64,000 bases of DNA from Mobula hypostoma (lineage: Eukaryota). Where the stretch lies: positions 68,202,001 to 68,266,000 of the forward strand of contig NC_086108.1 in assembly GCF_963921235.1 (NCBI RefSeq), read 5' to 3'. A program made the position numbers and the translations under genes. How positions within the stretch are numbered: position 1 is the stretch's first letter; every line of letters begins with the position of its first letter. Positions 15,150 through 26,800 of this stretch are shown one piece after another. The notes under the pieces are model-generated. The model did not search any database and was not told the origin of the DNA. It saw only the letters and a program-made list of their open reading frames with translations.

Positions 15150-16360
15150 AGCAAATAGTAAATAAGCTAGCAAACAATATCAAAGTGGATAGTAAAAGCT
15201 TTTAAAGTATGTCAAAAAATAAAAGAGAGATGAGGGTAGATATAAGACCATTAGAAAATCAGGCTGGAGAAATAATAACGGGGGACAAGGAGATGGCAAA
15301 TGAACTAAATGAGCATTTTTCATCAGTCTTCACTGTGGAAGACACTAGTGGTGAGACAGAGGTCGAAGGATGTGAGGGAAGAAAAGTGAATGAAGATACT
15401 ATTACAAGGGAGAAGGTGCTCAAAAAACGGAAAGACCTAAGGGTACATAAGTCACCCAAACCAGATGAACTGCACCCAAGGGTTCTGAAAGAGGTAGAAG
15501 GAGGGTTTGTGAAGCCATTAGCAATGATCTTTCAAAAATCATTGGACTCTGGCATAGTGCCAGAGGACTGGAAAATTGCAAATATCACTCCACTCTTTAA
15601 CAAAGGAGAAAGGCAGCAGAAAGGAAATTATACACCAGTTAGCCTGACCTCAGTGGTTGGGAAGATGTTGAAGTCAATTAAGGATGAGGTTATGGAGTAC
15701 TTGGTGACTCAGGACAATATAGGACAAAGTCAACATGGTTTCCTTAAGGGAACATCTTGCCTGACAAACCTGTTGGAATTCTCTGAGGAGATTTCAAATA
15801 GGATAGATAAAGGGGATGAAACTGATGTTGTATATTTGGGCTTTCAAAATGCTTTTGACAAGGTGTCATTCATGAGGCTGCTTACCAAGTTAAGAGCCCA
15901 TGGTATTACAGGAAAGTTACTGGCATGGTTAGAGCATTGGCTGACTGGTAGGAGGCAGCAAGTGGGAATAAAAGGACCCTTTTCTAGTTGGCTGCCAGTG
16001 AGTAGTGGTGTTCCACAGGAGTCAGTGTTGGGACCACTTCTTTTCATGCTATATATCAATGATTTAGATGATCGAATAAATGACTTTATGGCCAAGTTTG
16101 CAGATGATACAAAGATTGCTGGTGAGGCAGGTAGTGGTGAGGAAATAGGTAGGCTGAAGAAGGGCTTAGACAGATTTGGAGAAACGGCAAGAAAGTGGCA
16201 AATGAAATACAATATTGGAAAATGTGTGGTCATGCTTTTTTTAGAAGAAATAAATATGCGGACTATTTTCTAAATAGAGAGGAAATCCAAAAATCAGAGA
16301 TGCAAAGGGACTTGGGAGTCTTTGTCCAGAATACCCTAAAGGTTAACTTGCAGGTTAAGT
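15150..16360 (+). mobile_element. CR1 ORF2 RT fragment
   Basis: ORF 15209..16273 (354 aa) with QHGF, FQNAFDKV, GVPQESVLGP, KFADDTK; same subfamily as about 37200-39000 minus. Confidence 0.92.
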
Positions 16361-17270: not shown

Positions 17271-17363
17271 AATATTATATGGAATTCTACTCACTGAGCA
17301 ATAGGAAGGATGCCATTAAGCTGGAAAAGGTACAGAAAACAATCACAAGGATACTGCTGGACT

Positions 17364-17591
17364 TGAAGCACCTTCAATAACTCCGAAAGACTGAAGTTGG
17401 GTAAAATACTGAAAGGTTTTTATTCGCTGTACAATACGACCTCCATGCTAAGTGTCTGCCCCTGGACTGAGGGGGAGGGGCACGGCGAAACACCTTTATT
17501 CCGGGCTCTGTGGGAGGAGCCACAGGGGCAGTCAGCAGAGGGGCGTGTCCAGACAGTTAACCCAGTTACAACATATATATGGTTTACCACA
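17364..17591 (-). repeat. 3' LTR (228 bp)
   Basis: Direct repeat of 21541-21759; about 14 substitutions and one 9 bp indel by manual comparison. Confidence 0.97.
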
Positions 17592-17609
17592 TTCACCCCT
17601 CCTTTTGTT
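17592..17609 (-). promoter_or_regulatory. Polypurine tract
   Basis: Minus strand AACAAAAGGAGGGGTGAA directly before the TG of the 3' LTR. Confidence 0.9.
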
Positions 17610-17660: not shown

Positions 17661-18790
17661 TTACAGGTCAAGTCTATCAGGCGGTTGAGTCCGTCGCTGT
17701 GACCTACGTAGCACCGGTGGTGATTGCATCGGTGACGGCGGTTGTGCTGGCTCCGGCCTGACTTGAGGTGCCGGCACGTTAGGTGTTGGTAATCCCGCGT
17801 GCGTGTGCGTCGTGCCTGGTATGGGAGTGTCGTGTGGTGTCTGTGTAGGGCTTGGAGTGCGCGGTGTCCCGTGGGTACATATATCGGTGGGTATGGGGTC
17901 AATAGTCACCACGGAGTGTTCAGGGTAGGGGCCCAATGCTCCTGCGGGCACCAGGTTGCGGATGGAGATCGTGTCCCCCCGCCCAGCAGGTAAAACCATA
18001 TAGGTATACTGGCGGTTCGCATGAAGTAAGTGAACCCTCTCGACGATCGGGGAGTATTTATTGCTCCTCGCATGTTTCCGGAGCAGCACTGGCCCCAGGG
18101 ATGTCAGCCAAGTTGGTAGGGTGGTCCGAGTGGTCAACTTTCTGGGAAAAGAAAAGAGCCGCTCATGAGGGGTGGCATTGGTGGCTGTGCATAACAGGGA
18201 GCGGATGGAGTGGAGTGCCTCGGGAAGGACCTCCTGCCAGTGGGAGACCGGCAGTCCCTTTGATCTGAGGGCTAAGAGTGTGGCTTTCCACACTGTGTCA
18301 TTCTCCTTCTCCACCTGTCCATTCCCCCGGGGATTATAGCTCATGGTCCTACTAGTTGCAATTCCCCTAGCCAGCAGGTATTGGCGCAGCTGGTCACTCA
18401 TAAACGAGGACCCTCTGTCACTGTGGATATAGCATGGGTATCCGAACAGAGTGAAGAGCTTGCGCAGGGCTTTTATAACTGACGTGGTAGTGGTGTCGGG
18501 GCAGGGGATGGCGAAGGGGAACCGCGAGTACTCATTGATAACGTTAAGAAAGTACACATTGCAGTCGGTGGAGGGAAGGGGGCCCTTAAAGTCAACACTC
18601 AGTCGCTCAAAGGGGCGGGTGGCCTTGATGAGTTGTGCCTTTTCGGGTCGGTAGAAGTGTGGTTTGCTCTCTGCGCAGACTTGGCAGTCCCTGGTCATCA
18701 TCCTGATCTCCTCAAGGGAGTAAGGCAGGTTCCAGGCTTTCACAAAGTGGAAAAGCCGGGTGACCCCCGGGTGGCAAAGATCTACATGTA
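17661..18790 (-). pseudogene. Gypsy integrase (HHCC, DDE, Pro-rich tail)
   Basis: CHPGVTRLFH..CQVC; SVDFKGP, HSDRGSSF, GQVEKEN; ends LRRSQRRTQPPDRLDL. Confidence 0.93.
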
Positions 18791-18800
18791 GGGCGTATAG

Positions 18801-20560
18801 TCAGTCAATCTGCGCGCTGGCGCACGTTCCCCGGGATAGGGCATCAGAGGGCTCGTTGAGCTTCCCAGGCCTGTACATCATGTCATAGTTGTAGGTGGAG
18901 AGTTCGATTCTCCACCTCAGAATTTTATCATTTTTGATTTTGCCCCGCTGTTGGTTATTAAACATGAATGCGACTGAGCGCTGGTCAGTTAGCAGGGTGA
19001 ACCTTTTGCCGGCGAGATAGTGCCTCCAGTGCCTAATAGCTTCCACTATGGTCTGGGCCTCTTTCTCCACCGCGGAGTGCCGAATTTCAGGGCCTTAAAG
19101 GGTACAGGAGAAGAACGCCACTGGTCTTCCTGCCTGGTTGAGGGTAGCAGCCTGTGCAAAGTCGGAGGCATCACTCTCTACTTGGAAGGGAATGGCCTCA
19201 TCCACCGCATGCATTGCTGCTTTGGCAATGTCCCCTTTTATGCGGCTGAAGGCCGCGCGGGCCTCGGCTGAGAGGGGGAATGTGGTGGACTCAACCAGGG
19301 GGCAGGCCTTGTCTGCGTAGTTAGAGACCCATTGGGCGTAATACGAAAAGAAGCCCAGGCACCTTTTGAGGGCTCTGAGGGTGTTGGGAAGAGGGAGTTC
19401 CAGCAGGGGGTTCATATGGTCGAGGTCAGGGCCAATGACTCCATTTTCCACAAGACACCCAAGGATAGCAAGTCAGGTGGTCCCGAATACACACTTGTCC
19501 TTGTTATAGGTGAGATTGAAAGCTTTGACTGCTTGGAGAAATTTTTGGAGGTTGTTGTTGTGATCCTGCCGGTGGTGACCGCAGATGGTGATGTTATCCA
19601 GATATGGGAACATGGCCTTCAGTTGGCACTGGTCCACCATCCGGTCCATTGCCCTCTGGAAGACAGATTCACCATTCGTGACACCGAAGGGGACGCACAG
19701 GAATTGATAAAGCCTGCCGTCCGCCTCGAAGGCAGTGTAAGGGCGGTTCTCCCGGCGGATGGGGAGCTGATGGTAAGTGGATTTTAGGTCTATGGTCGAG
19801 TACACCTTGTACTGTGCTATCTGATTGACCATATCCGCGATGTGGGGTAGAGGGTACGCGTCGAGCTGCGTGAACCTATTGATGGTCTGGCTATAGTCCA
19901 CGACCATCCTATTCTTCTCCCCGTTCCGAACAACGACCACCTGCTCCCTCCAAGGACTTGTGCTTGCCTCAATGACCCCCTCCCTGAGCAGCCGCTGCAC
20001 CTCCGACTTAATGAAAGCTCTGTCCCCCGCACTGTACCTCCTGCTTTTAGTTGCCACAGGTTTACAGTCGGGGGTCAGGTTGGCAAACAGCGGTGGGGGA
20101 GGGATCTTGAGGGTGGAGAGGCCGCAAGTGGCGTCGGTAGTGCGGCAGTTGGCATGGTGTTGGGTGGGATGTGCGGGTCAGTGTGTGTGTGTGTGGTCAG
20201 TAGCGGGGTATGTGACATATCTCTGCAAAACTGGGGATTTACGACAGTAATTGGCGGGAGGGGCCCATCATACTTCATTGTCACGCTTTTCAGGTGGCTC
20301 TGGAAGTTGAGCCCCAATAGCACAGGGGCACACAGTTGTTGCACCACTAGCGTCGCTACACAACCCCCCCCGGATGTCTGTTGTATGCAACCCGGAAGCC
20401 ATGGTGACCCTCTGACTTACCGGCCGTATTGCGAGTCCACAATGCTGCACCGTGTCCGGGTGGATAAAACTCTCCGTGCTGTTCGTGTCAAACAGGCAGC
20501 TTGTCCTGCGCCCCTCCACCAGCATGTCCATCATTGACCTTGCGAGCTGGTGGGGAGCGC
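18801..20560 (-). pseudogene. Gypsy protease, RT and RNase H, fragmented
   Basis: LFDTNSTESF (protease), RMVVDYS..DAYPLP..PFGVTN..YLDN (RT), VESDASD..EKEA..TDQRS (RNase H). Confidence 0.93.
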
Positions 20561-20779
20561 TTTGGTCGAGGGTCACTGAAGCCGGAGTTGAGTCGCTGTC
20601 TTGGTCCGGCGCGGTGGGGTGCCCCGTGAGCACCTGTTGGTTGTAGGCGCTGGGAGGTGGCGCCAACCAAGATGGTTGCCCCCATGTCTCGCACATGGTG
20701 GCGGCATGCAGGGAAGATGGCGGCAGGCAAGATGGCGACCCCCATATTTCACACGCACCGCTGCTCGATCCTGCTCGCG

Positions 20780-21514
20780 GTTTGGACTTACAGACCTTGA
20801 CGAAGTGGCCCTTCTTTCCACTGCTGGAGCACGTAGCTTGTCGGGCCGCGCAGTGTTTCCGGGGGTGCTTCTCGAGTCCGTAGAAGTAGCATTTCGCGGA
20901 CTCGCGACTGGCAGCAGCCATGGTCATTTCGCCGGCGGGTTGCAGGGTCTGCGGCGCCCACAAGGCCATCGGGGGATCGCGTGCCTGGAGAGCCTCAGAG
21001 TTATGAAGAGCGGTCTCCAGCGTATTGGCCAGCTCGATCGCCGAACGTAAGGTAAGATCGGCTTTTTCCAACAGCGACTGGCGCACATACACTGACCTGG
21101 TCCCCGTGACGAAGGCGTCTCTCACTAGGAGTTCTGCATGCTGCGCCGCCGTCAGCTCCCGGCAATTGCAGGCTCGCACGAGTGTCCATAGGGCCTGGAC
21201 GAACTCAGCACCTGATTCCCCGGGCGTTGTTGCCGTGTTACTAAGCGGTGCCGAGCATAGACGCTATTTATCGGCCGCAGGTATTGTCCTTTGAGTGCAC
21301 TCATCACGCCATCGTAGTTCGGCTGGTCTCTGATCAGCGAATAAACCCGTGGACTGACCCTGGAGAGTAGAACTCTGCGCTTCGCTATGGGGTCGGTCGC
21401 TTTAATCTCCTCTAGATACGCTTCGAAGCATCCCAGCCAGAGTTCGAAAGCGTTTCCAGCTTCAGGTGTTTGCGGATCGAGGTCTAACTTGTTGGGTCTC
21501 AGAGTGTGTTCCCT
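20780..21514 (-). pseudogene. Gypsy gag with two degenerate CCHC knuckles; presumed start codon reads AGG
   Basis: EHTLRPNKLDLDPQTPEAGNAFELWLGCFEAYL..; CYFYGLEKHPRKHC..CSSSGKKGHFVKVC. Confidence 0.85.
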
Positions 21515-21529
21515 GCTTTAAAATTTATG

Positions 21530-21540
21530 GCGAATAAAAT
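21530..21540 (-). promoter_or_regulatory. Non-tRNA primer-binding site, complementary to the element's own LTR
   Basis: Minus strand ATTTTATTCGC directly after the 5' LTR; no TGG; LTRs contain G(C/T)GAATAAAA. Confidence 0.7.
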
Positions 21541-21759
21541 TGAAGCACCTTCAATAACTCTAAAAGACTGAAGTTGGGTAAAATACTGAAAGGCTTTTAT
21601 TCACTGTACAATACGACCTCCATGCTGAGTGTCTGCCCCTGGACTGAGGGGCAGGGGCAAGGCGAAACACATTTATCCATGAATCTGTGGGAGGAGCCAC
21701 AGGGGCAGTCAGTAGAGGGGCGTGTCCAGACAGTTACAACATATATATGGTTTACCACA
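21541..21759 (-). repeat. 5' LTR (219 bp)
   Basis: Direct repeat of 17364-17591. Confidence 0.97.
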
Positions 21760-23309
21760 GGACTGGACAGCTTGAGTTGTAGTAAAAGATTGGATAAGTT
21801 GTGCTGTTTCTCCTGGAGTATAGGAAGATGTGAGCTGATTTTATAAAGGTTTATAAAATTATGAGGGGATAAATAATCGCAGGCCTAGTATAGGAGAGTC
21901 TAATATAGAGAGAAGAAGTTTAAGTTGAGAGTAGAAAGAGAATCTGAGGGGTATTTTTATTATACAGAGATTGATGGGTGTATAGAGCAAAATGCCAAAA
22001 GAAGTGGTCAAGGTAGGTACAGTTACAATATTTGGACAGGTACGTGGATAGGAAGGGTTTAGAGGGATCTGGGTCAAATGCAGACTAATGGGATTAGCTC
22101 AGAATTGTATTTTGGTTAGTTGGCATGACAAGATGGGTCAAAGTGGCTGTTCGTGCTGTACAAATCTGTGATGCTATGGCTATAAGAGGCTTCATTTGGT
22201 AAGGTTAATGTTGAAGTTCTTAAATTTAACCAATCCCAGTATAACCTAAGCAAACTTCTCCTTTTGTTACAGCCATTTTAACTTATTTTCTAAAGATTGC
22301 ATCACAAGTTACTTCACTGCCATATACTTTTTAAAAAATCTTTCTGAATAAGATTTGTTCAGTCGTCCCCTCCATAAATTAGGGTCAATCCACTTAGTGT
22401 AAAGTTTATTAAAACATTTTCTACATTAATTCAATATATACAAAGCACTTTTAGTTTCAAGAAGGACAGATAAGTGGAATAACTATAAATTGGAATGACT
22501 TTCTTCAGGTTCAACCTTTTACTGGATACTATAATTGCACAAAAAGAAACTTTAAATAAATGAGAGAATTAATAGATATGCAACTTAATTTAACAAATTG
22601 AAAATTGTTTCTTCTTGTATAAAAATGTACAATTCACCACTGACTGGCATATAATGTTAAATCATTTCAAAATTCAATAAAATTCAAAATTGCCATAAAC
22701 AGAATCAATGATCATAAAATTAATATCACCAAATGCAGAATTAAGATTCCTTAATAGTGTGAATATATTATACATTGCCTTTCTGTAACATGCTTGCAAA
22801 TTACATAACTGTAATGTCTTGAAATCATAAGCAGATTATCCTTTTTCATCCATTGAGATGGATCACCAGTATATGCAAGTTTTTTAATGTACATTCCTTA
22901 TGTGTCACCACAAATGAGTCACATTTATCTATATCTTTTGAATTTAACTCTTGAGGAAATATTATTAAGGAATTTCCATCTCTATATCTTTAGTTTGGTT
23001 TAATATAGTTTGCTATAATCTTTAAATTGTCACAAACTAAACCACCAAAGAGCAGGTTAATATCACTGGATATCGGGAAGCTAATGAGTCATCAATTAAA
23101 TATTCACATGATTCACTTCAGACCTTGCACAACTTCAAGATACAAGCTGAGAAGTACAATTATTGCTCGTGCTCTGTTCCTGATAGCAAACTCAGAAATT
23201 TCAGCACAAAGAAACTTCTTAGCAAATTAATAGATGTCACAGTCAAACCTAATATTTAATTGCCCTTGAGAATGTAACTAACACAGCAATATTGTACAAT
23301 ATATCAAAC

Positions 23310-24199: not shown

Positions 24200-26800
24200 T
24201 AGGGCCATAAGACCATAAGATATAGGAGCAGATTTATGCCACTTGGTCCATTCAGTCTGCTCCACCACTTCCTCATGGCTGATCCATTGTTCCCCTCAGC
24301 CCATTCTCCTCTCCGTATCCCGTCATGCATTGACCAATCGCGAATCTATTAACCTTTGCCTTTAATATACTTAAAGACTTGGCCTCCACAGCTGCCTGTG
24401 GCAAAGAATTCCACAGATTCATCACTCTCTGGTTAAAGAACTTACTCCTTATCTCTGTTCTAAAAGGGCGCCCCTCTATTCTGACGATGTGTCCTCTGGT
24501 CTTAGACTCTCCCACAATAGGGAACATCCTCTCCACGTCCACTCTATTGAGGCCTTTTAAAATTTGATAGGTTTCAATGAGGTCACTGCTCATTCTTCTG
24601 AATTCTAATGAGTACAGACACAGAACCATCAAATACTCTTCATCTAACAAGCCGTTCAATCCTGGAATCATTTTTATGAACTTCCCTTGAACCCTCTCCA
24701 TTTCAACACATCCTTTCTAAGATAAGAGGCCCAAAACTGCTCACAATACTCCAAGTGAGGCCTCACTAGTGCTCCCTAAAGTCTCAACATTACATTCTTG
24801 CTACTATATTCCAGTCTTCTTGAAATGAATGCTAACATCGCATTTGCCTTCCTCATCACAGCTTCAGCCTGCAAATTACCTTTAGGGAATCCTGCACATG
24901 GATTCCCAAGTCTCTTTGCACCTCAGTTTCTGCATTTTCTCTCTGTAGAAAATACTCTACCCTTTCATTTCTTCCACCAAAGTGCATGGCCGTACACTTT
25001 CTAAAATTGTGTTCCATCTGCCACTTCTTTGCCCATTCTCCAAATCTGTCTAAGTCTTCCTGTAGCCTCTCTACTTCCTCAAAATCTACCAGTCCCTCCA
25101 TCTATCTTCATATTGTCTGCAAACTTTGTAAAAAAAAAGCCATCAATTCTGTCATCCAAATCATTGACATACAAGGTAAAAGAATCTACCATAACCCACA
25201 CTCCTATCGCCACTAGTCAACACCAACCAACCAGAAAAGACTTACCTTATTCTCACTCTATATCTCCTGTCGATCAGCCACTGCTTTATTCATGCTAGAA
25301 TCTTTCCTGTAATACCATGTCTTCTGGGACCGTTCCAGAATCTAGTGTTTCTGGAAAGATAATTACTAATGACTCCACAATCTCTTCCATCATCTCTTTT
25401 TGAACCCGGGTGACTTAACTTGCTGTCTGATATTCACTCGAGCCTCTCTTTTACATTTTATGCATCTGAAAAAGCTTTTGGTATCCTCTTTAATACTATT
25501 GGGTAGCTTACTTTTGTATTCCACCTTTATCTTCTTAATTATATTCCTACTGGTTTATGAAGCACTGAATGGTCTCGGGCCAAAGTACATCTCCGATTTC
25601 TTGCTGTATTATAAAACTTCCCCAGCTCTCAGTCGTCTGGGTGGGTCTGCTTACCGTTCTCAGGGTCAAAACTAAACATGGTGAAGCATCTTTTAGTTAC
25701 TATGCTCCATATATTTGGAAAAACCTTCCAGATGATCTGAAGTCTGCCCCAACTTTAAGCTCTTCTAAACCAAGGCTTCAAACTTTTCTTTTCACTATAG
25801 CTTTTAATTAAAATCTCTTGCACTGTAAATTTTATTTCTTTATTTTTAATTGTGATTTTATTTTCTTTAATTTGATGTTTGATTTTTATATTTTGTTTTA
25901 TGTAAAACACTTTGAACTGCCTTGTGTTTGAAATCAACTTGCCTTGTCTTGCCATAATGACTTTTTTAGTTGCCTTCTACTGGTTTTTAAAAGCTTCCCA
26001 ATCATCTAACATTCCATTAATTTTTGCTCTATTGTATGCCCTCTCTTTGGCTTTTATGTTGTCTTTGACTTCTTTTCTTAGCTGTGTCATCTTTCCTCTT
26101 TGGAATGTATATATCCGATGTCTTCCGAATTGCTTCCAGAAAATCCAGACATTGCTGCTCTGCCGTTATCCCTGTCCTGAGAATATAATGATCACTTCCC
26201 CTAAGGGTCCTTTTCCTTAAGCTCTCTAATCAATTCCGGTTCATTGCACAATATCCAATCTAGAATAGCTGATACACAAGTGGGCTCAGCCACAAGCTGT
26301 TCTAAAAACCCATCTCGTATGCATTCAAGAAATTCCCCCTCTTGTGATCCAGCACCAACCTCATTTGTCCAATCTACCTGTATATTGAAATTCCCCCTGA
26401 CTATTGTAACATTGCCCTTTGGAAGGCATGTTCTATCTCCCAATGTAATTTGAAGACCACATCCTTACTACTGTTCAGGGGTCTGTAAATAACTCCCATC
26501 GGTCTTTTTACCCTTGTAGTTCCTTAGCTCTATCCACAATGATTAAACACCTTCTGACACTATGTCACCCTTTTCTAATGACATGATTTCATTTTTTACT
26601 GACAGAGCAAAGCCACCGCCTCCACCTACCTGCCTGTCCTTTCAATACAATGTGAATTCTTGGACATTAAGCCCCCAGCTATAATCTTCTTTCAACCATG
26701 ATTCTGTGATGCCTACAACATCATACAGTACATGCCAATCTTTAACGGTGTGACAAGTTCATCTTCCTTATTCCATATACCACATGCATTCAAATATAAT
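24200..26800 (-). mobile_element. Degraded CR1 with internal deletions, interrupted by an L2 fragment
   Basis: ORFs 24273..24701, 24856..25101 and 26201..26443; ccataaga tail repeats near 24205. Confidence 0.8.
25541..25953 (+). mobile_element. L2-clade LINE 3' end inserted into CR1
   Basis: LLVYEALNGLGPKYISD..GEASFSYYAPYIWKNLPDDLKSAPTLSS..LQTFLF is an L2-type C-terminus; ttgcc tail repeats. Confidence 0.8.

Follow-up and report, generated by a model that had tools for sequence, protein, structure and literature searches.

Complementarity Between the LTR and the Primer-Binding Site Suggests Self-Primed Reverse Transcription in a Ty3/Gypsy Clade of Rays and Other Animals

Introduction

The LTR retrotransposon Tf1 has been demonstrated to self-prime its reverse transcription, and the same is predicted for chromoviruses related to it and for one lineage of plant Copia elements, according to PMC7175516 and PMC6317226. 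Tf1 primes with the cleaved 5' fragment of its own RNA, as described in PMC7175516, and the sequence of its primer-binding site is copied onto the cDNA at its 3' terminus (PMC11042837). In the literature searched, which included the accessible text of PMC3601003, PMC5443660, PMC13524379, PMC2871265, PMC6934838, PMC4600332, and PMC2864245 and extended neither to Repbase and Dfam nor to subscription papers, no self-priming was found in a non-chromoviral animal Gypsy clade.

The window analyzed here is a stretch of 64,000 nucleotides from Mobula hypostoma (contig NC_086108.1, positions 68,202,001–68,266,000), which carries a decayed Ty3/gypsy element of 4.4 kb on the minus strand. The finding concerns the 5' LTR junction of this element, for which a sequence-only reading had proposed self-priming in the manner of Tf1. 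The results support that proposal: a TGG-type primer-binding site, a tRNA match among the 24 host sequences of 4 isotypes compared, and non-conserved complementarity were all not encountered.

Structure of the Element and of Its 5' LTR Junction

The element is enclosed by a target-site duplication AGTCC (upstream copy at 21760..21764, downstream copy at 17359..17363; these and all other element features lie on the minus strand) and by LTRs of the TG...CA type. The 5' LTR (219 bp, 21541..21759) was 93.6% identical to the 3' LTR (228 bp, 17364..17591) outside a 9-nt gap, and a polypurine tract (17592..17609) precedes the 3' LTR. Loose contig ends fall at positions 21541 and 17591 and indicate the same LTR boundaries in other insertions. 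The internal part holds the remains of a single gag-PR-RT-RNase H-integrase frame (17661..21514), which is fragmented and has a decayed start position; its ORF stretches cover positions 21152–21517, 20268–21263, 19473–20177, 19095–19472, 18801–19094, and 17661–18800. Two CCHC-like knuckles were recognized by eye in the coding frame, and a chromodomain is absent. Membership in Ty3/gypsy is indicated by the TG...CA LTRs, the target duplication, and the purine tract, as well as by the domain order PR-RT-RNase H-integrase, which is that of gypsy elements; the best PDB match was the Ty3 RT (E = 3.9e-25). Fragments of non-LTR reverse-transcriptase frames flank the element (window positions 15206–16273 and 24273–25101), and judging by their motifs, we take them to be CR1/L2-like.

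As had been read from the sequence, no TGG follows the 5' LTR. The LTR end is followed by a one-base linker (21540), which is A here and in 24 of the 25 junction types defined below, and then by TTTTATTCGC. The primer-binding site (21524..21539) is complementary to an arm within the LTR (21595..21610), and this pairing extends over 16 nt in well-kept copies; the 11-nt core of the arm occupies 21605–21595 and includes AATAAA at 21601–21596, whereas positions 11–16 of the site are partly decayed in this copy. The perfect 10-nt complement that had been noted in the 3' LTR is real, although its coordinates were one base off (17427–17418 rather than 17417–17426). It lies 54–63 nt upstream of the 3' LTR end, within the 3' LTR copy of the arm (17433–17418), and shuffling of the 3' LTR produced such a 10-mer complement in 15 of 200,000 trials. 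The G-U variant of the 5' LTR is likewise present; it is a CpG-type change in this copy, and most copies have a Watson–Crick pair there.

The segment between the arm and the linker (21541..21594) would form a fold-back loop, with an RCC motif directly after the putative cut (between 21595 and 21594) and an inner helix. This helix, which had been suggested as an inward extension of the stem, was found in the fold of an 86-nt region (−19.1 kcal/mol, z = −3.41; matched by none of 200 shuffles), whereas the z-score was only −0.77 when a 141-nt region was taken. The distance of 26 nt to the gag start had been given correctly, the start codon position itself being decayed in this copy. The copy in the window is a worn example, as the pairing in most other copies spans 14–16 nt, interrupted here and there by single mismatches that fall mostly at one CpG.

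Copies and Control Elements in the Mobula Genome

The search of the 3.5-Gb genome with a 321-bp query yielded 3224 first-look candidates; 40 of these were scored, and 30 copies were retrieved. TGG after the LTR was found in none of the 30 copies. The complementarity was kept across the family, and a sister subfamily in the Mobula genome has compensatory changes that preserve the pairing between the LTR and the site.

Two other groups of elements provided controls within the same genome. Sushi-like chromoviruses with an SH3_Tf2-1 domain (L166–L171, among 150 scored matches) kept a site of 10–11 nt in two of six cases: CA and one base are followed by an 11-nt LTR-complementary site, paired at 11 of 11 positions in L168 and at 10 in L167. 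In the other four sushi-like copies, which are decayed, an LTR-complementary site was not found. Three Gmr1-like elements had LTR complementarity of at most 7 nt. Integrase precedes RT in the Gmr1-like elements (L172–L183), some of their frames exceed 1,400 codons, and a TGG-type site begins about 4 nt past the LTR end; presumably, this site resembles that for tRNA-Pro.

Relationships of the Clade

Named homologues were found in rays (83–91% for most top rows) and sharks and then in insects, cnidarians, and a nematode at 56–62%; the protein representatives at 50% identity numbered 580 at E ≤ 1e-30. No relatives were found in viral contigs, and the Atlas search matched only generic RT clusters. 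Identity of the RT domains to the reference was 41.5% or higher for clade rows and did not exceed 37% for other groups. In the RT tree (62 rows, 200 columns), the clade (100/100), the chromoviruses (100/97), and the Mag-like rows (100/99) were all separate, the outgroup labels resting on domain searches and on by-eye comparison with a published alignment, with no named reference among the rows. The tree of RT, RNase H, and integrase, built from 28 of 46 rows and 501 columns with near-copies and surplus clade rows omitted, agreed with this grouping (chromoviruses 98/94). Sisterhood with the chromoviruses was not rejected by the AU test (p = 0.498 for RT and 0.224 for RT, RNase H, and integrase), and neither was sisterhood with the Mag-like rows (p = 0.29).

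Two assignments were considered and not adopted. Membership in the Tf1/sushi chromoviruses disagrees with the missing chromodomain and SH3_Tf2-1 domain and with an RT that is not nested in the chromovirus clade. The sequence-only reading was right that a chromodomain is absent: at E ≤ 0.05, all 20 long homologues lacked a chromo or SH3_Tf2-1 domain, and none was detected in the integrase frame of the window. Membership in the Mag lineage had first been suspected from motifs, and the trees place the clade outside the Mag-like rows, which were labelled by eye. The YLDN motif of the RT, mentioned earlier, is not diagnostic and was rejected as a marker, as YLDD or a similar motif occurs in many clade members; a literature search for YLDN in connection with a retrotransposon gave no match.

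Pairing Across the Clade

In metagenome contigs, 473 relatives were detected, of which 80 were retained; 49 of them, with a match near the frame start or with long flanks, were examined, and 44 were analysable, the other 5 being too short. When the longest perfect inverted repeat was sought without bias within 250 nt upstream of the frame, a junction stem of 11–19 bp emerged in 32 of the 44 metagenome loci, and in 31 the stem exceeded all 20 shuffles; many of these loci are near-copies from one assembly. When near-copies were counted once, 25 distinct junction types were obtained (20 from metagenomes, 3 from MAGs, and 2 from the subfamilies of the Mobula genome); L041, L042, L059, L063, L073, L074, and L102 had been dropped before this count, their junction being absent or decayed. 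A stem was present in 17 of the 19 RT–RNase H clusters formed at 75% identity, and the clusters of L059 and L074 were those without a clear one.

Positions 1–11 were paired in 273 of 275 cells of the 25 types, with 23 distinct 11-mers and two to four pair types at each of positions 3–11. Positions 12–13 were paired in 22 of 25 types, and the background level was reached from about position 17; the median perfect stem was 14 bp, and the shortest was 11 bp. Compensatory changes thus recur across the junction types as well as in the sister subfamily. An arm was paired with its own site at 10.9 of 11 positions versus 7.25 with the site of another family. Since anchoring of the junctions favored pairing at positions 1–11, the counts over 25 types are partly circular, and it is the unbiased search and the cross-family figure that carry weight. 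Covariation would also be cheap if the site were recopied from the arm in every cycle, and it therefore speaks for a mechanistic link more than for selection.

The stem is set in a fixed frame: a run of A's closes the arm, RCC comes next (C in 23 of 25 types at each of positions +2 and +3 past the arm), and the LTR end CA is followed by one linker base and then by T's. The summed length of the inner helix was 94 versus a shuffled mean of 63.6, and none of 2000 shuffles reached 94 (24 types, L137 omitted); in 10 of 25 single types, this helix was weak (<4 bp). The distance from arm to site was 31–66 nt in the clade versus 174 nt in the sushi-like copies. Taken together, the absence of TGG and the covarying pairing make self-priming likely on comparative sequence grounds.

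Several individual loci deserve mention. L137, which the RT tree places nearest among non-fish relatives, carries T as its linker and lacks RCC after the arm but retains a 13-bp stem. Nine contigs filed under bacterial MAGs (L137–L145) carry this animal retrotransposon, probably through host contamination. One clade member (L054:2094-9696) is nested in another LTR element in which integrase precedes RT and which has a TGG primer site.

Antisense Run-On Loci and Palindromic Insertions

Exact matches to patterns in which the LTR end is followed by antisense LTR past the normal site numbered 43 and 18, and more were obtained when mismatches were allowed, while the reversed control pattern gave no matches. 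A looser pattern that admitted ordinary junctions gave 555 matches, 33 of which were exact run-ons. Loci in which the primer site continues as antisense LTR were mapped in 88 cases (60 of the main and 28 of the sister subfamily). The antisense LTR extended to the first LTR base in 68 of them, nearly so in 5, and stopped earlier in 15. Among the 68 complete run-ons, 36 were free-standing with a complete left LTR, and these had an exact 5-bp target duplication in 28 cases, one with a single mismatch in 5, and none in 3; the others continued antisense into the purine tract (11), were built on a 3' LTR (3), or had a partial left LTR (18). Palindromic insertions of about 405 bp consist of one LTR, the linker A, and the inverted LTR from 175 to 1 (e.g., L204, L206, L207, L211, L217, L239, and L248). 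No description of palindromic insertions of such kind was found in the literature searched. At L212 (C5, near 197.46 Mb), an inverted-LTR run-on comes after a short derivative without coding sequence, in which two LTRs enclose some 330 bp of internal ends.

The palindromes could be formed as follows. Plus-strand strong-stop DNA would carry a copy of the primer and, if the whole primer were copied, would stop at the 5' end of the RNA, near position −51 from the arm end. Its 3' end could re-anneal to the arm at the RNA 3' end and be extended through U3 into the purine tract. Priming at the purine tract would then give a double strand with two U3 ends, and its insertion by integrase would result in a palindrome of about 405 bp.

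RNA Start and Primer Length

In the ray family, TATAAA is located at −82 from the arm end (17 of 22 parsed copies, out of 30), and TCAGTC follows with its A at −51. In the copy studied, the TATA position (21671..21677) is decayed, and the initiator-like TCAGTC (21642..21647) places the predicted transcription start at the A at 21645, 31–33 nt after the TATA box, which is the usual spacing. Contigs from four runs gave no transcript starts, ends, or poly(A) tails. The putative self-primer, from the predicted start to the putative cut, would comprise about 51 nt (21595..21645). The RNA start had earlier been expected at the paired segment, which looks wrong for the ray family, as both the promoter elements and the over-copied sites put it some 40 nt upstream of that segment.

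For a complete run-on, complementarity is sufficient and self-priming is not required; information on the primer comes from the partial cases alone. Six of the 15 partial run-ons ended between +1 and −4 of the predicted start A (rough binomial p = 1.7e-4 for a window set post hoc). A further 7 ended 15–34 nt short of the predicted start, 2 of which may represent chance extensions, and 2 entered U3 (−9 and −106); the endpoints of L205 and L272 involve microhomology or rearrangement. It should be noted that partial endpoints can also stem from later deletions or insertions. The position of the TATA box and the initiator, together with the partial run-on endpoints, suggests that the ray-family primer is probably about 50 nt long, with 15–16 nt paired, rather than 11 nt as in Tf1.

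The following scheme is proposed for the ray family. Transcription would begin at the TCAGTC initiator, and the RNA would fold back on itself. A cut, probably made by the RNase H of the element as in Tf1, would fall immediately behind the poly(A) hexamer (AAUAAAA run). A 5' fragment of about 50 nt would be left, and its last 15–16 bases would prime DNA synthesis at the 16-base site after the 5' LTR, while the short stretch from the cut to the poly(A) site would be used for strand transfer. A predicted side effect is that the 5' poly(A) signal would be buried and the 3' one open. We infer the start, the cut, and the nuclease from the features described above, and initiator start, fold-back, cut after AAUAAAA, and a self-primer of about 50 nt, taken as one scheme, appear reasonably probable. 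That LTR-derived RNA of some kind acts as the primer is highly probable.

The strongest competing explanation is priming exactly as in Tf1, with the RNA starting at an A 11 nt before the cut, a primer of 11 nt, and positions 12–16 serving another function, for example pairing to the RNA 3' end. In the clade as a whole, 19 of 25 types have A at −11 and 21 of 25 have G at −10 relative to the arm end, and YAGY is found at arm positions −12 to −9 in 12 of 25 types versus 0–2 in other registers. A TATA box at a common position was not found in invertebrate families (13 LTRs, 11 of them from outside the Mobula genome); instead of TATA at the ray spacing, these families have A at −11, which fits an 11-nt primer. 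The shortest perfect stems, of 11 bp, agree with such a primer, as do the layout of CA, one base, and 11 nt in the sushi-like elements of the Mobula genome and the alternative starts that PMC5341516 reports for Tf2. Against it, the TATA box and initiator of the ray family lie 40 nt further upstream, where the partial run-ons cluster, and pairing stays high beyond position 11, the median perfect stem being longer than such a primer. An 11-nt primer is thus considered unlikely. YAGY at 11 nt before the putative cut is retained even in the ray family, though its start is predicted further upstream.

Poly(A) Signal and Other Possible Primers

AATAAA or ATTAAA was found within the arm in 17 of 25 types and in the loop in 3 of the other 8. 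In one well-kept copy, the 5' hexamer was predicted to be paired (0.99–1.0), whereas the core of the 3' hexamer was predicted to be open; in the copy studied, the AATAAA of the 3' arm is likewise predicted to be unpaired at the RNA 3' end. The earlier suggestion that the stem masks the 5' poly(A) signal therefore holds as a prediction for this family, in which masking is plausible from the modelled fold, but it does not generalize: as a clade-wide rule, it was rejected, since 8 of 25 types have no AATAAA or ATTAAA in the stem.

The hexamer is also central to an explanation in which the primer acts in trans, namely, that genomic RNA stays uncut and is primed by short transcripts of 5' or solo LTRs whose 3' end is set by the LTR poly(A) signal and then pared back to the duplex by host nucleases. 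The primer 3' end would then coincide with the hexamer in the 17 types mentioned, LTR copies are plentiful (3224 first-look candidates), and the same run-ons of about 50 nt would be expected. However, the intramolecular fold is predicted to fill the site fully, the arm has no hexamer in the remaining 8 types, and the conserved RCC and inner helix beside the arm suggest a structure recognized in cis, so that this explanation appears quite unlikely.

Another reading takes the stem for a regulatory hairpin, acting in poly(A) occlusion, packaging, or translation, while a host RNA or protein of another kind primes. The predicted pairing of the 5' AAUAAA with an unpaired 3' core would suit such a function, and so would the start of Gag 14–50 nt past the site in most types. 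The stem, however, starts one base past the LTR end, precisely where a primer must end; moreover, its sequence varies freely, so no single host RNA would fit it, and it persists where the hexamer is missing. This reading is very unlikely. Priming by a tRNA, a tRNA half, or another conserved host RNA, with the LTR match incidental, is barely credible: half-tRNA primers are described for plant Copia lineages in PMC6317226, and the comparison covered 24 host tRNA sequences of 4 isotypes, taken from 20 stretches after a genome search with 60 best matches, but the best match to the primer site among these was 7 nt, no Rfam match was found in the window, TGG was seen in none of the 30 copies and none of the 25 types, and 23 different 11-mers, each fitting its own LTR, could hardly be supplied by a conserved host tRNA.

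Discussion

With covariation as support, the results extend probable self-priming to a large clade that lacks a chromodomain and has named homologues in rays, sharks, insects, cnidarians, and a nematode. In Repbase, some families of animal Gypsy elements are described as self-priming, so a prior description is possible. New here are the class of palindromic insertions and the run-on hints of a primer of about 50 nt. By means of over-copied primer sites, the length of the primer and the start of the RNA can be mapped in the genome sequence alone, and the run-ons explain palindromic mini-insertions that repeat annotation would take for odd solo LTRs. LTR finders based on the primer-binding site would probably overlook that of this clade. 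If the proposed scheme is true, the architecture differs from that of Tf1, with a long primer whose end coincides with the poly(A) signal, and the elements would be independent of host tRNA and of control by tRNA fragments.

A wider picture may be put forward tentatively, although it is rather doubtful as a whole. In it, a pan-metazoan Gypsy clade would have invented self-priming independently of Tf1/sushi; in rays, a capped primer of about 50 nt would end on its own poly(A) signal, one helix both priming and silencing the 5' poly(A) signal, and the elements would scatter palindromes of about 405 bp whose aborted forms record the RNA start.

Two groups of known elements resemble the clade in ways other than the primer. 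The Mag lineage (Mag, SURL) shares, as compared by eye, two adjacent CCHC-like Gag knuckles and an extra residue after the DY motif of RT, as well as short LTRs and a single frame; Mag elements are tRNA-primed. MolGy and PolGy of molluscs and annelids (PMC6238403, PMC8556966) are large unplaced metazoan Gypsy clades, and the present clade may belong to one or the other; four motifs of RT or integrase were absent from the readable supplements of these two papers, and the word PBS is missing from both main texts.

The plant Copia TAR lineage (Houba, Osr-1) is similar in that its self-priming is predicted from LTR complementarity, according to the accessible text of PMC6317226, and it differs in superfamily, domain order, and host kingdom. 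Since it lies outside the chromoviruses, repeated origins of self-priming have a precedent. The Tf1/sushi and Tcn1 chromoviruses of fungi, fish, and mosses share with the present clade the Gypsy domain order, the predicted self-priming, and, as observed in the sushi-like copies of the Mobula genome, a one-base linker followed by an 11-nt complement, whereas the present clade is separate from them, fully supported, and set on a long stem in both trees.

The closest likeness is to Tf1 and Tf2 of Schizosaccharomyces pombe and Tj1 of S. japonicus, which have a post-LTR site complementary to their own LTR and no tRNA site. The adjoining inner helix recalls the structure known as U5-IR, and in both systems the end of the DNA receives the sequence of the primer site. 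Meanwhile, proteins of the present clade have neither SH3_Tf2-1 nor chromo domains, and primer cleavage has been demonstrated in Tf1, whereas we infer it in the ray family. Thus, the element probably works like Tf1, yet it is not a Tf1/sushi chromovirus. The Tf1 primer is 11 nt long, while that of the ray family is probably about 50 nt, with 15–16 nt paired, and would end on the poly(A) hexamer.
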